Assembly (NCBI GenBank): GCA_020137815.1
Contig: CM035350.1
Span: forward strand, 3,844,001-3,908,000
Length of the DNA stretch: 64,000 bases
Reading direction: 5' to 3'
Source: Hormiphora californensis
Taxonomy: Eukaryota; Animalia; Ctenophora
Shown here: in pieces, positions 12,431-27,400 of the stretch
Numbering within the stretch: the first letter of the stretch is position 1
How the letters are laid out: each line of letters starts with the position of its first letter
Notes under the pieces: generated by a model
The model's database searches: none
What the model was told of the DNA's origin: nothing
The model's input: only the letters and a program-made list of their open reading frames with translations
Program-made: the position numbers and the translations under genes

Positions 12431-15400
12431 CCTGTAAGGTTAATTCCCATTTATTACAGTGTAATTTACACGCACCTGGGGTAGAGGAGGGAGATTGTTG
12501 AAGACGGGAGGCTGGGGAGGAGCGAACATTGGAGGAGCGGAGACAGGGTTGAACATGGGGGGAGGGGCCATGGCTGGTAGGGATCCTGGGGTGAACATTG
12601 GGATTTGGGGAAGTTCCTCAATACTCGTAGGTATGGTGGCAACTTCCTCAGGTATAACAGCAGCAGCAGTAGGGGGTTGAGGGGAGGGGGTAGGGGCAGG
12701 TTGAGGGGAGGGGGTTGGTTCAGGTACCGCCTCTATAACGGGGGGCTGGGGAGAGGGGGTTGGGATGACGGCTGGTGCTGGTTGGGGGACAGCTGCAACA
12801 GGTTCCAGGGTGGCAGGTTCAGCAGGTTGTGCTACTGGAGGTGGCATCGCCAAGGGAGGCACCTCAGGAAGGGGCTGGACCGTGTTCTGAAATAGAAGGA
12901 AACGGGTTAGAAGTGTGTCTGTCTGTCTGTCTATCAGTGTCTGTCTGTAGTCTGTCTGTCTGTCTGTCTGTCTGTCTGTCTGTCTGTCTGTCTGTCTGTC
13001 TGTCTGTCTGTCTGTCTGTCTGTTCAGGTCTGTCTGTGGTCGTATGTCTGTCTGTCTGTCTGTCTGTGTTTGTGTGTCTGACTGTCTGTCTGTCTGTCTG
13101 TCTGTCTGTTGTGTTGTGACTGTCTGTCTTCTGTCTGTGTTGTGTTGTCTGTCTATCGGTCTATTGTCGTTGTCTGTCTGTGTGTCTGTCCGTCTGTCTG
13201 TCTCTGTCTGTCTGTCTGTCTGTCTGTCTGTCTGTCTGTCTGTCTGTCTGTCATGATATGCGCTATTCCAGCTTTATGATATGTTTTTCTTCCACCAGCT
13301 CAGTAAGTACTCATGTATTTTGTATATTGTATATTCTCCCCACTGTTAGGCGAGATAGTGACGTCAATTCGATGCTATGGGGCAGCAAATCTTGTTGTGA
13401 GACGTTCTACGACAGGCCAACTTCTCGTATAAAAGGAAGCCACTGTCCAGAGCATCGAACATCCGCATTACTCGTTCGTTACGTTGCGTTTCGTTTCCTT
13501 TTGCTTGTCTCAAGAACACCAATAAGGGCTCTTCTCCCCTGGGCCCACCGCCTGGCACCTCCAATCGCCCCTGTAAATCCGTCTAGCACTACCCTTTCTA
13601 TCCGCACTTGACCTACCCAGTTACCACTGAACTGTCTCTCGGGCCTGGCCTAGTCTCATCACTAAATTACAGCTACATTCTTGGCCAATATCGACCAAAA
13701 CTTTGAAATTTCGCATTTAATTCAATTTGGGAAACTTTGTACTTTGCCATTACGTGTTTGATAAAGGAGCACTAACAAGTCACAGAGCAGAATTCTATTC
13801 ATTACTCGTTCGTTACGTTGCAGTTCGTTTCACTTTTGCTTGTCTCAGACACCAATAAGGGCTCTTCCCCTCACTAAAATGCAACTTAAATCCGTCTCAA
13901 ATACCCATTTCTAGCACACATGAACTCCCAGTTACCACTGAACTGTCTCTCGGGCCTGGCCTAGTCTCATCACTAAATTACAGCTACATTCTAGGCCAAT
14001 ATTTCTTCCACCAGCACAGTGAGTACTCATGTATATAATTGTATATGTTCTATATTCTCCCCACTGTTAGGCGAGATAGTGACAGTCAATCGATGCTATG
14101 ACAGCAAATCGTTGTTGTGAAGACGTAACTACGACAGCCAATCGATGATAACGATGTGACAGCCAATCGCTGTTTCCCCTTTCTTTTCGGTTGGCTGTCG
14201 TCGACAGCCAAACGATGTTATTCTTAATTCACTACCTAGCAGTGTACTGACATTAGATCACGGCATTCCTTCTCAGTATAAAGATGAAGCCACTGTCCAG
14301 GAGCATCGAACAGTTCTCATTGAACTAACGTGCTTTGTTTGTTTTTTATTGATTATCGCATTTAATCATTTCTAACTGTACAGATATAATGAATACTACC
14401 GAAATGGAACCCGCTGGAACCATCGGAACCCCTATCTCACTGATTTCTACGACATCTCAAGCCCCCGTAACTGGAAGAGTGCTCCCAAGTCTAATTATCG
14501 AAGGTGAACAAGTGAGCGGATCGTGGAGAATGGAAAATGTTGCTCAGGGCATGGTTGAGGATGGCAGGGTTTCTGTCTTCGCCGTGGATTTGCCAATGAC
14601 AACTACCATCGATACATTTATCGAACAGCTCATAACCAAGGCTGATCAGTTAGGCATGGGAATCTTGGTCCAAGTACAGGATTGTGTGTATATCACATCT
14701 GAAGACCTCGAGAGAGCTCTCGATCTATCTCCAACTAGATTCAACTATGTCATCATGCCTCATGGAAACTATTTCGGGAAAATAAAAATGTGTGAGAAAG
14801 ACGGTAAAGTCACTCAATGTGTAACAATGAAAACAGTGGAAAAGGTGACGGGAAGCCCGGTGAAAAAGGTGACAGGAAGCCGAAGAAATCCTGGACATTA
14901 TAATAGCCCTGACCAAGTCCTAAACAACCTTATCAAGAAAACGAACCAGAAAATGGGAGGGAATAATTGGATGGTCAACAAAGACGCTGAAAGACTCCCT
15001 TGTTCTGTTTTCATGGAACCAACGCTCATCCTAGGAGCTGCTCTTAACCATTTTCCAAGAACCTCCGCCAAGCCCTCAATCGCCACAATTGTCGGCTCTC
15101 CATCTACCAGTATCGATTCTGGACGTTACCTTAACCGTGTTCTACCGATTTTCCCCGATGCAGATGGCAAAATACCTCAATACATACAAGGAGTTGGTTG
15201 GGTTCTAAAAGAAATGTTGGAAGATTACCAGACAGAGAACAAGAGGTTGCCAAAGAAGATTGTGTACTATCGATTGGGAAATATCGGCGACGACGACGAC
15301 AATGCACTGAATGAGCTGAAAGAGATCCAAGAGAGCTGCTTGGGCCTAGAAGATTCTGGAGAGGTCGTGTATGAGCCACAAATATCTATCGTTATGTGCT

Positions 15401-24400: not shown

Positions 24401-27400
24401 GGTTGCCAAAGAAGATTATCTACTATCGATTGGGAAATATCGGCGACGACGATGACAATGCACTGAATGAGCTGAAAGAGATCCAAGAGAGCTGCTTAGG
24501 CCTAGAAGACTCTGGAGAGGTCGTGTATGAGCCACAAATATCAGTCGTTGTGTGCTCACGACATCAAGATCAGTTGTTCACCAAGGCTGTCAACGGGGGA
24601 AGGGTTGATTGCGGGACGGTTGTGGATAGTGGAGTTACGTCTCTTAACCACATGGAATTCTACTCTGAAAGTGAGTATCTAGTAAATAATGAGTATCTAG
24701 TATTACTTAGTTACACTGCCGCTTGTAGTCGCATTACCGTAATGGAAATACAGTAATGAGACGCAGACTTTGCTTAACGTGCGGCAAAAAGTGCATGTGT
24801 TCAGCACGTACTAGCACGCTGATTGGCTACGGTTGCACGTCTTCATACCGTATCTCTGTTTTCCATTGCCGTTTTCCCACTACAAGCGACCGTGTAAATT
24901 AGAACGCGTGACGTGCACCCGACGTGCATACATGCGTTCTGTGTGGTGAAAGTACGATTTCACGTAGTACACAGACCAATCTTTCGGGCGATCTACTTAT
25001 TCTGGCGATCTATTCGGGCGTCCGTAATCCGCTGCCTTAGGAGAGAAAGATTTTCAGGAGTTCAAGCACAAAGAATGTCAACTAAATCGTCTCCTAATAA
25101 TTTCAGTTCCCGGATATAATACTCTCTACAGGATTCTCTTTGACGACAACAGGCTTACAATTGACGAATGGGAAATGCTATCCTTCAACCTCAGCATCTG
25201 TGACCCTCGCAACTCTAGGTATTTTATCTGCCTATACATTTACCACCTCTGGGGGCCATTCATTTCACAAGTGTCGACCACATCGCATTGACGCAAATCG
25301 AGATAGTCGTTTGGGTTCCTCTAACCCTTAGAAGAAGTGAATACTGTATTTTATCTAAGTTCTAACACCAATTTCTGCTCAGGATGTTGTGCACGCCGCG
25401 CCCCTCATGTTCGTGCGCCCGAAGAGCGATCCCCTCACGGGGTTGGTCGCTACGCGACCAACTCAGGATTTTGGAATACCCGGCCCCTCTGCTTTACGCC
25501 TCCTTGAGCTACAATGCAGCACGATCTAAACTGCTGGCATGTTGGATAGACTGGACTCACCCACCGAGTATTGATGAGCTTGTTACAATACTAGAAGTAG
25601 AACCCGCGAAACAGTACTCATCCGGCAGTGATGAAAGACGCCCCCCGCGATACCAGGAATAAACATTTGAATGACCAATTGAAAAGTAGAATGTAATGCA
25701 GAACTGTAATGTAGAATAATATTTATTGAGTGGCCAATTAATATAAACAGACATGAATATAAAAAGGGACTTGAGTCGTGATAAAATGAAGTGAGCTATC
25801 TTTTAAACGTTTTTTCTTATATTTTTTGAAACATTTGTTTTTAATTTCATCTCTTTGTTCAACTGTCTCAGACAGTGTCTGTCTGTCTGTCTGTCTGTCT
25901 GCTGTATGTCTGTCTGTCTGCTGTATGTCTGTCTGTCTGCTGTATGTCTGTCTGTCTGCTGTATGTATGTCTGTCTGCTATCTGTCTGTCTGTCTGTTGG
26001 AAAACGGAAGAAAAATAGGAGTGTGACTTACCGTCGGTAGAGGCATCCTTGTTTGGTTGATGGCATAGTTAATCTGCTGCTGGGGGTACAAAGGAGGGGG
26101 AGGATTAGCATTGAGAGGTGCAGTGGAGGGTGGAGGGGAGGCGAGGTTTAGATTTGCCATCCCACTAGTAGGAACACCCTGGGTCTGTGTCGGTGTATAC
26201 TTCTTGTCCAGCGAAACCTGATTGAGGGGGTTTGTTAATATAAAATCAGTGAGAATAACAAACACGGATTAATAAGTATGTAATAACTCAGTTTTTATGT
26301 ACTAGAAAAACAAGTTGCTGGTACCCTTGTCAGCGCAGTAACCGAAGTTCCGAACTGATGCGCGGCGCGCATTACCGAGCCACGGAGCAAGGGGGACAAT
26401 GACTGTGGCCACTTTACCGCTTTCCGACACTCCGCGCCCTACTGCAAGTTAACACCGAAGCAGCCAGCAGGCAGGATACGAGAGAGCCGGGTTAGATTTG
26501 TACATGCCAGATTAAAAACTAAAAATTAGGGTATCTTTTGGGTATCTGGTACGCGAAAACCCGAGAATACACGTCACGAATAAGAGTGTGTGACTAAAAC
26601 AGATGCGAGATTGAAACAGGAGTTGCCCCACGATATACGGACACATGGACATTGGACATATAAAGGGTGCACAAGGGTTGAAAAAGGAGGAGGGGTGCAC
26701 AGTACACAACTAACATCAGCAAATCCATCAGATCCTACGGGACCCACCGTTTCAACAGCTGCTTCAGGCGTGGGAATCCTGTGAAGATACCCGTAACCGA
26801 TATCACACCCCAACCTGCCGGGGGTGTAAGTGGTCAGAGATCTAGTACCTAACTGGGTTAAAGGTTGACAAGATACCTAAAACTTTTCGTATATCGTCTT
26901 ATTTTGATTTATCATTAATTTTCAGCATTTTTTCAGAATTTTTTGTCGGCTAGAAATATGTGCAAAATAGGGGGTCTACTGACAAATGAGTGTGCCTTTT
27001 TTAAAATTGATACTGGAATATCTCCGGTTCCTGATGAGATACAGAAACCGTTTTGGTAGCGTTGGAAAGGTCTTATTAAGGCCAATCCAACGCAACCAAG
27101 ATCAAGTAGCTATCTTTTGAGGAACCGGAAACGTGAATTTCAATTTGCGAGACGCAGTGAGTGTGCCCAGTAAAACCAGTGCTGACAATATCGGTAGACC
27201 CCCTATTTCGAATTTTTTTCTAGCCGACAAAAAATTCTGAAAAAATGCTGAAAATTAATGATAAATCAAAATAAGACGATATACGAAAAGTTTTAGGTAT
27301 CTTGTCAACCTTTAATTGATAGAAATGTCTGGTTTTAGTTTTGGATCATACATCCAAATACAAATGATAAACTTACATGCCCTCTCCACCCCACTTGCTG

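Follow-up and report, generated by a model that had tools for sequence, protein, structure and literature searches.

We analysed a window of 64,000 nucleotides (nt) from the ctenophore Hormiphora californensis (GenBank assembly GCA_020137815.1, contig CM035350.1, positions 3,844,001 to 3,908,000 of the forward strand; all coordinates below refer to the window). Within one intron of its GRASP55/65 gene lie three tandem genes for short Argonaute (AGO) proteins, which hold the MID and PIWI domains and appear to have lost the N, L1 and PAZ domains. Each of the three plus-strand copies has three exons with GT-AG splice sites and frames that join without stops, yielding predicted proteins of 460 (copy 1), 454 (copy 2) and 614 amino acids (copy 3, or 586 through an acceptor at 25467). 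The three intact 3-exon genes of a preliminary description of this DNA are thereby borne out. The genes and the features around them are:

12887..26031, minus strand: host GRASP55/65 intron of 13.1 kb, phase 0, from predicted splice sites, holding all three copies, which are antisense to the host
12916..13252, no strand: (TCTG)n array on the left border of the cassette; more of these arrays bound the units at 16494-16664, 18109-18260, 20749-20911 and 25876-25997, from a repeat scan
14019..14024, plus strand: donor-like GT site upstream of the copies; others at 13303, 18313 and 20963
14277..14383, plus strand: TATA-like box to AG acceptor of copy 1; the same arrangement at 18533-18648 (copy 2) and 23097-23212 (copy 3)
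14389..15520, plus strand: copy 1 exon 1, with Beam strand, L2 strand, MID and most of PIWI; matches Pfam Piwi
14416..14448, plus strand: Beam motif of copy 1 (residues 10-20); the L2 strand follows 17 residues later
15735..15843, plus strand: copy 1 exon 2, from the splice model
16093..16234, plus strand: copy 1 exon 3 to the stop; AATAAA at 16274
15070..16493, plus strand: tract homogenised between copies 1 and 2, with 17/1418 differences against 64/876 upstream; introns and 3′ untranslated region (UTR) included
18654..19761, plus strand: copy 2 exon 1, from the splice model; matches Pfam Piwi
19983..20091, plus strand: copy 2 exon 2, from the splice model
20348..20495, plus strand: copy 2 exon 3 to the stop; AATAAA at 20529
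21172..23078, no strand: 1.9-kb insertion ending 18 nt above the copy 3 TATA-like box
23218..24670, plus strand: copy 3 exon 1, from the splice model; matches Pfam Piwi
25107..25218, plus strand: copy 3 exon 2, from the splice model
25383..25662, plus strand: copy 3 exon 3; AATAAA overlaps the stop

Copy 3 carries an in-frame insert of ~306 nt in a MID loop of exon 1 (about 23690-24045), made of a Tyr-Asp repeat and a GC-rich piece, and an 84-nt insertion in exon 3 that gives two in-frame acceptors, 25383 and 25467. In every copy the ATG is preceded by an AG acceptor at 5 nt and by a TATA-like box at 112-121 nt, an arrangement that would fit a promoter followed by either a trans-splice acceptor or the acceptor of a UTR intron. 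Spliced-leader trans-splicing is reported to be common in ctenophores, with at least 56% of Hormiphora reads (PMC8527503), and could explain the acceptor. An expression look at 13280-16480 drew on two sequencing runs. One run yielded just one contig, of 341 nt, which lies on the upstream repeat, and the other, blank here, comes from a related organism with ~81% DNA identity on a GRASP exon, so that its blank is uninformative. The stretch at 13253-14260 consists of duplicated fragments of the short-Argonaute upstream region without the coding part, including a TATA-like box at 13428 and another donor-like site; it also holds a ~311-bp repeat that is covered at 99% by one seawater contig.

The GRASP exons upstream of the host intron match Pfam GRASP55_65. 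For one GRASP exon, a contig of the related organism ends its match at exactly the predicted exon limits and continues into the neighbouring exons, and the last exon (12440-12886) is assigned from its acceptor, phase and proline-rich sequence only. Together with the phase-0 intron, these matches uphold the placement of the genes antisense within a GRASP intron. We rejected such nesting as a special feature of the locus, since 2357 nested genes are reported for Hormiphora and intron nesting is ordinary in ctenophores (PMC8527503). Another GRASP intron holds a second antisense nested gene (28721-29480, plus strand), with a 176-amino-acid open reading frame (ORF) that has a faint galectin match, followed by a cysteine-rich exon. 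Additionally, a 45-bp tandem array of ~93 copies (31031-35206, 94% matches) starts at a GRASP exon edge and is open for hundreds of codons on both strands.

We found that Pfam matches the three first exons to Piwi alone (69-89 bits), with no match to PAZ, ArgoN or ArgoL1 at E<=0.1, in keeping with the PAZ-less MID-PIWI proteins first described. A tblastn search of the 64-kb window with 8 full-length AGO queries, insensitive at 25-30% identity, found no N, L1 or PAZ match better than E ~1. The preliminary description had the proteins start in L2; instead, they begin with a strand from the other end of the missing region. The window proteins and two Pleurobrachia gene models (P0001 and P0002, see below) have a common GTIGT motif near the N-terminus, which MAFFT aligns to the extreme N-terminal strand of full-length AGOs, named Beam in PMC9262622. 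A Beam profile built from 7 full-length AGOs has residues 10-20 as its top site in 5/5 short proteins; for this motif, which was picked after the likeness had been spotted by eye, 0/2000 shuffles reach the score within the first 30 windows and 0-1/300 do so anywhere. Leaving out one AGO at a time, the true site ranked first in 5/7. The reciprocal scan put the Beam first in 5/8 full-length AGOs (one of the three misses is without that region), and in these five the 60 residues before L2 score below the Beam. The Beam lies 17 residues from the L2 strand in the window proteins and 35 in Pleurobrachia, compared with 335-406 in long AGOs. From these comparisons it is very probable that N, L1 and PAZ were lost by an internal deletion that joined the Beam to L2-MID-PIWI, rather than by 5′ truncation. 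HMMER puts the Pleurobrachia linker, from residue 22 onward, on L2, leaving the exact junction uncertain.

That uncertainty, the AG acceptor above each ATG and the donor-like sites upstream would also suit ORFs that make up the 3′ portion of ordinary Argonaute genes, with N and PAZ exons spliced in through the conserved donors, the case that the preliminary description had named as its own refutation. Joined to the acceptor, three of the four donors run into an in-frame stop within ~20-55 codons and the fourth gives a microsatellite-coded frame; with no conserved open frame above them, we rejected the donors as coding exons. In a normal AGO the Beam stands ahead of N; because it shares an exon with L2 here, exons added from upstream could not rebuild the N-PAZ lobe in the right order. 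The window search for N, L1 and PAZ and the common start of both Pleurobrachia models speak against this explanation as well, and we regard it as very improbable.

A search with copy 1 exon 1 returned 2 relatives among 2356 candidates, both Pleurobrachia bachei entries of EukProt (P0001 and P0002). Both models start at the same place as the window proteins and have the same deletion, suggesting that the family is older than the triplication in the window. A profile search gave 7 matches among 7331 candidates and added a 281-amino-acid metagenome fragment (P0010) with 51% identity to P0001; pairwise identity across the three sources (window, Pleurobrachia and P0010) is 52-57%. P0002 ends just past the place of intron 1 in the window genes with residues that fit a read-through donor, suggesting that the position of this intron is common to Pleurobrachia. 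Three further candidates (P0011-P0013) were set aside as partial models: they start in L2, keep the canonical catalytic Asp motifs and the C-terminus, and have no Beam. A search for longer family proteins returned 7 ordinary AGOs (24-29%) and did not turn up a long form of the short family, a blank that is weak evidence. Pattern matches were confirmed in 0/308 and 0/206 cases among metagenome contigs and in 0/474 among viral contigs. The Atlas contains many eukaryotic Piwi-only clusters, in which we could not separate fragments from real short genes. Literature searches, whose scope excluded the Pleurobrachia genome paper and the supplements of papers, either of which could mention the genes, found no description of the family, and look-ups by sequence gave no look-alike.

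Against solved structures the short proteins score 82-95 bits with human AGO1-4, 50-61 with plant and yeast AGO, 25 with the Neurospora QDE-2 lobe and at most 29 with the PIWI clade, to which they thus do not belong by this comparison. The PADLOC models of prokaryotic Argonautes (pAgos) reach 19-38 bits, so the family derives from the eukaryotic AGO clade and not from prokaryotes. The genes also carry spliceosomal introns. The preliminary description had proposed a phylogeny against full-length AGO and PIWI proteins; in our tree the six short proteins fall on one side of a long branch with support of 100/100, and with 17 rows and no ctenophore long AGO, PIWI or pAgo it cannot place the parent. 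With the AGO-clade descent, the Pleurobrachia relatives and the frame-keeping evolution described below, the idea of a separately evolved and recently amplified animal short family has held up.

Structure prediction, likewise proposed at the outset, gave animal AGOs as the best fold matches. AlphaFold modelled P0001 from a 16-sequence alignment with a predicted local distance difference test score (pLDDT) of 74.5 and a predicted template modelling score of 0.79; the model places strands at 17-25 and 44-52 and has a tail helix predicted with confidence, and a new C-terminal segment conserved in the family has a pLDDT of 77-86. For copy 1 exon 1 alone the pLDDT was 70.4, and the strands fall at 15-20 and 26-31. 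In the models the two strands, Beam and L2, would pair with each other. The best Foldseek match of the P0001 model is uni-lobed human AGO2 (9k6r, template modelling score 0.73/0.76), and 5the is among the matches of the copy 1 model.

We compared functional residues in six members (the three window copies, P0001, P0002 and P0010), using human AGO2 numbering taken from the alignment of the short proteins with AGOs. For most of these positions (catalytic, pocket and seed) the roles are those we assume for human AGO2; K566, R792 and A859 are excepted. The roles of these three follow PMC12296108. We observe that D597 is replaced in 6/6 members, H807 in 5/5 covering the site and D669 in the window copies and P0010, the alignment being unclear in P0001 and P0002; E637 is kept in 1/6 (P0001), where this Glu finger is the sole catalytic residue left. 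Each window copy has 0/4 residues of the DEDH catalytic tetrad and a run of Asp residues next to the former D669 position, and the three replacements noted earlier (GADVTH to GAALNH, YRDG to YRLG, YYAH to LYAS) are all present. The 5′ pocket is largely kept, as had also been noted: K533, Q545, C546 and R792 are retained in 5/5 members and K570 in 6/6, K566 is Lys in five and Arg in one, and Y529 is Phe. R812 is gone, and 4/5 members have a basic residue at the preceding position. Of the seed contacts, R714, Y790, S798 and Y804 have been lost; the H753-R761 loop lacks its motif and is shortened by 3-5 residues. The usual C-terminal end is indeed missing, the terminal MF(Y/F)x motif being replaced by a tail conserved within the family. 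From the L2 strand to the end, the isoelectric point is 5.1 in the window proteins and 6.2-7.6 in the relatives (two of them partial), compared with 8.6-9.5 in 11/11 other AGOs.

We propose, with a probability of about 0.42, that the short proteins are non-cutting binders or sinks for 5′-phosphorylated small RNAs that dampen or divert the small interfering RNA (siRNA) pathway. This reading is favoured by pocket residues that are kept in every covering member while, of 110 columns conserved in long AGOs, only 42 are retained by all short members. In such a one-lobed design, the Beam would be joined directly to L2-MID-PIWI and pair with L2, making the lobe stable without a partner; with the four catalytic residues replaced, it would not cut. 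The kept MID pocket would hold the 5′ phosphate and the first two or three nucleotides of a guide, whose length would not be measured without PAZ. Without PAZ and the C-terminal carboxylate, and with a shortened seed loop and an acidic surface, the full seed would probably not be pre-ordered and target recognition would be weak. The ligands are likely siRNAs, because Mnemiopsis is reported to have abundant endogenous siRNAs and no microRNAs (PMC6211395), as well as four piwi genes and one Argonaute-like gene (PMC4971632).

Several points weigh against this proposal. The C-terminal carboxylate, which props K566 and R792 (PMC12296108), is gone, and an isolated MID domain is reported to bind nucleotides only at 0.1-3.6 mM (PMC9262622); for both reasons the pocket may no longer work. 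Some seed contact remains, since the K709 position is still basic and R795 is retained as Arg or Lys. The alignment used for folding already contained the Beam placement, and the fold is thus not independent of the Beam assignment. The relatives are gene models; intron 1 appears to be read through in P0002, and P0010 is a partial sequence that does not reach the N-terminus. Finally, the ratio of nonsynonymous to synonymous substitution rates (dN/dS) among the copies is 0.58-0.61 pairwise (confidence interval 0.42-0.91 for 0.61) without transition bias, and 0.71-0.81 with transition bias allowed, where the interval includes 1.

The same losses could mark a pseudo-Argonaute that no longer binds RNA and serves as a protein scaffold or decoy, which we think unlikely. 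The protein has lost its catalytic tetrad, R812, the C-terminal motif and most seed contacts; it is acidic, with the Asp run by the former D669 position in the window copies, and the new C-terminal segment conserved in the family is modelled at pLDDT 77-86. Med13 offers a precedent in which the fold is kept and the nucleic-acid interface probably is not (PMC12477606). However, the MID residues that contact the phosphate, and R792 with them, have outlasted ~45% divergence in which many other sites conserved among AGOs changed, which argues against this reading.

A MID-PIWI-only protein without the catalytic tetrad also recalls the short pAgos (PMC11370952), and the family could be a guide-programmed target sensor or repressor that signals through a partner, perhaps one supplying the missing lobe. 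The isolated yeast MID-PIWI lobe is reported to load guides, bind targets and cut mismatched targets (PMC9262622, PMC10772731); such cutting would favour loss of catalysis, an argument that PMC10772731 applies to short Agos. The basic residues K/R709, R792 and R/K795 are kept, and copy gain with fast evolution fits a role in conflict. However, none of the 25 window ORF stretches scanned with Pfam, a chosen subset of 95 ORFs, is an APAZ-like or effector gene, the window has no N/L1/PAZ-like match and the Beam is kept in cis, and the shortened seed loop, the lost seed-backbone contacts and the acidity speak against it as well. A sensor of this kind is, in our estimate, rather improbable. The full analogy, in which a comb-jelly one-lobed short Argonaute evolved independently of bacteria, is self-stabilised by the Beam, guide-loaded and non-cutting, and acts as a sensor with an effector as an animal counterpart of short-pAgo immunity, is doubtful to the same degree.

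The dN/dS values also bear on whether these are young decaying duplicates, all of them or all but one, whatever the ancestral short gene did. A dN/dS near 1 combined with no expression had been named as grounds for calling the copies pseudogenic, and after transition correction dN/dS is not clearly below 1. Copy 3 is the most altered: besides the repeat-coded insert and the 84-nt exon insertion, it has a transposon upstream and has lost two residues from a PIWI strand. However, a three-way alignment of the copies (34 indel events, with 7 unalignable 5′ blocks dropped) shows indel lengths divisible by three in 10/10 coding and 2/17 non-coding cases (p 8e-6), and none of 115 substitutions makes a stop where 4-5 would be expected (P 0.008-0.017). 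Splice sites, TATA-like box and AATAAA are kept in 3/3 copies, and the same internal deletion occurs in a second species. Altogether, the in-frame indels, the lack of stops and the high dN/dS suggest a reading frame that is protected while its residues evolve fast; judged from sequence, a protein-coding function is likely, and decay of the copies is quite improbable.

The near-identity of PIWI between copies 1 and 2, with L2 and MID diverging, had been noted at the outset; as a sign of function it is not supported. We find that the identity also covers the introns and the 3′ UTR, and that informative sites switch from grouping copies 1 and 3 to grouping copies 1 and 2 (p 2e-11). Because introns and UTR are equally identical, the pattern reflects recombination rather than PIWI-specific constraint, and we rejected selection as its cause. 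The copies likely arose by unequal crossover between the (TCTG)n arrays, followed by recombination between copies.

Animal AGO-clade Argonautes (human AGO1-4) are closest to the short family in both sequence (82-95 bits) and fold, and have in common with it the Beam, L2 strand, MID pocket and PIWI fold. Unlike them, the family is without N, L1, PAZ, most of L2 and the catalytic tetrad, has a shorter seed loop and an acidic character, and ends in a family-specific tail in place of MF(Y/F)x. The same parts in the same order are found in an engineered uni-lobed AGO, a Beam piece plus the yeast MID-PIWI lobe (PDB 5the), and in human AGO2 9k6r; these are a laboratory construct and a state of the full protein, whereas the short family is a natural gene. 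The Beam piece is reported to be needed to stabilise the engineered lobe, which still loads guides (PMC9262622). That yeast lobe still slices and keeps the seed contacts and C-terminus that the short family has lost.

The short pAgos (SPARTA, SPARSA, SPARDA and SiAgo) likewise have MID and a dead PIWI and no PAZ. They differ in ancestry (19-38 against 95 bits) and have an APAZ-effector partner, none of which was seen beside the short family in the 25 stretches scanned; the family keeps its own Beam and L2 strand, and the likeness is convergent in shape only. PIWI-tryp, the trypanosomatid solo-Piwi, is a long protein and not a minimal lobe. It belongs to a separate protist subfamily and did not match in searches with the short family; it is alike in being a eukaryotic Argonaute-family protein without PAZ, with a function described as unknown (PMC3166047). 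Med13 has the Argonaute fold with a drifted nucleic-acid channel, and differs in keeping six domains and losing the 5′ pocket signature, whereas in the short family a lobe is missing and the pocket is mostly retained (PMC12477606). By its sequence, the short family is neither a short pAgo by descent or gene context nor a full AGO by domains, and is built like the engineered uni-lobed AGO.

Reviews describe all eukaryotic AGOs as long six-domain proteins (PMC10772731) and short Agos as exclusively prokaryotic (PMC11370952). If true, a conserved animal Beam-plus-MID-PIWI family would be a natural exception to uniformly long eukaryotic AGOs, and the N-PAZ lobe and catalysis would have been lost together on two occasions. 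As a small natural protein, it would allow one to ask what role an Argonaute lobe has when PAZ is missing, in a lineage frequently placed as the sister group of all other animals. It is also a candidate new part of a ctenophore small-RNA system reported to have abundant endogenous siRNAs and no microRNAs (PMC6211395).

The insertion above copy 3 has ~790-bp terminal inverted repeats that are 100% identical, CAC...GTG ends, a 4-bp CACG duplication and an internal 103-amino-acid ORF (22043-22354) with no Pfam match. It presumably resembles a non-autonomous element of the Chapaev/Transib type. Between copies 1 and 2 lies another repeat element (16660-18110) with internal ~310-bp repeats, and an inverted form of it stands in another GRASP intron (27577-28221). 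Broken reverse-transcriptase-like and GIY-YIG frames at 44555-45254 (GIY-YIG E 0.0009) are likely the remnant of a Penelope-like retroelement.

Elsewhere in the window, three near-identical ORFs of ~148 amino acids on the minus strand (35982-36428, 37272-37718 and 48936-49385) point to another recent local amplification; the first has weak GNAT acetyltransferase matches below the cut-off. A 394-amino-acid ORF at 62443-63627 has no Pfam match, and we take it to resemble XPG/PIN-fold proteins. It follows a single-exon Ebp2 gene (59800-60717) and an ORF for a two-pore-type potassium channel (60914-61933).

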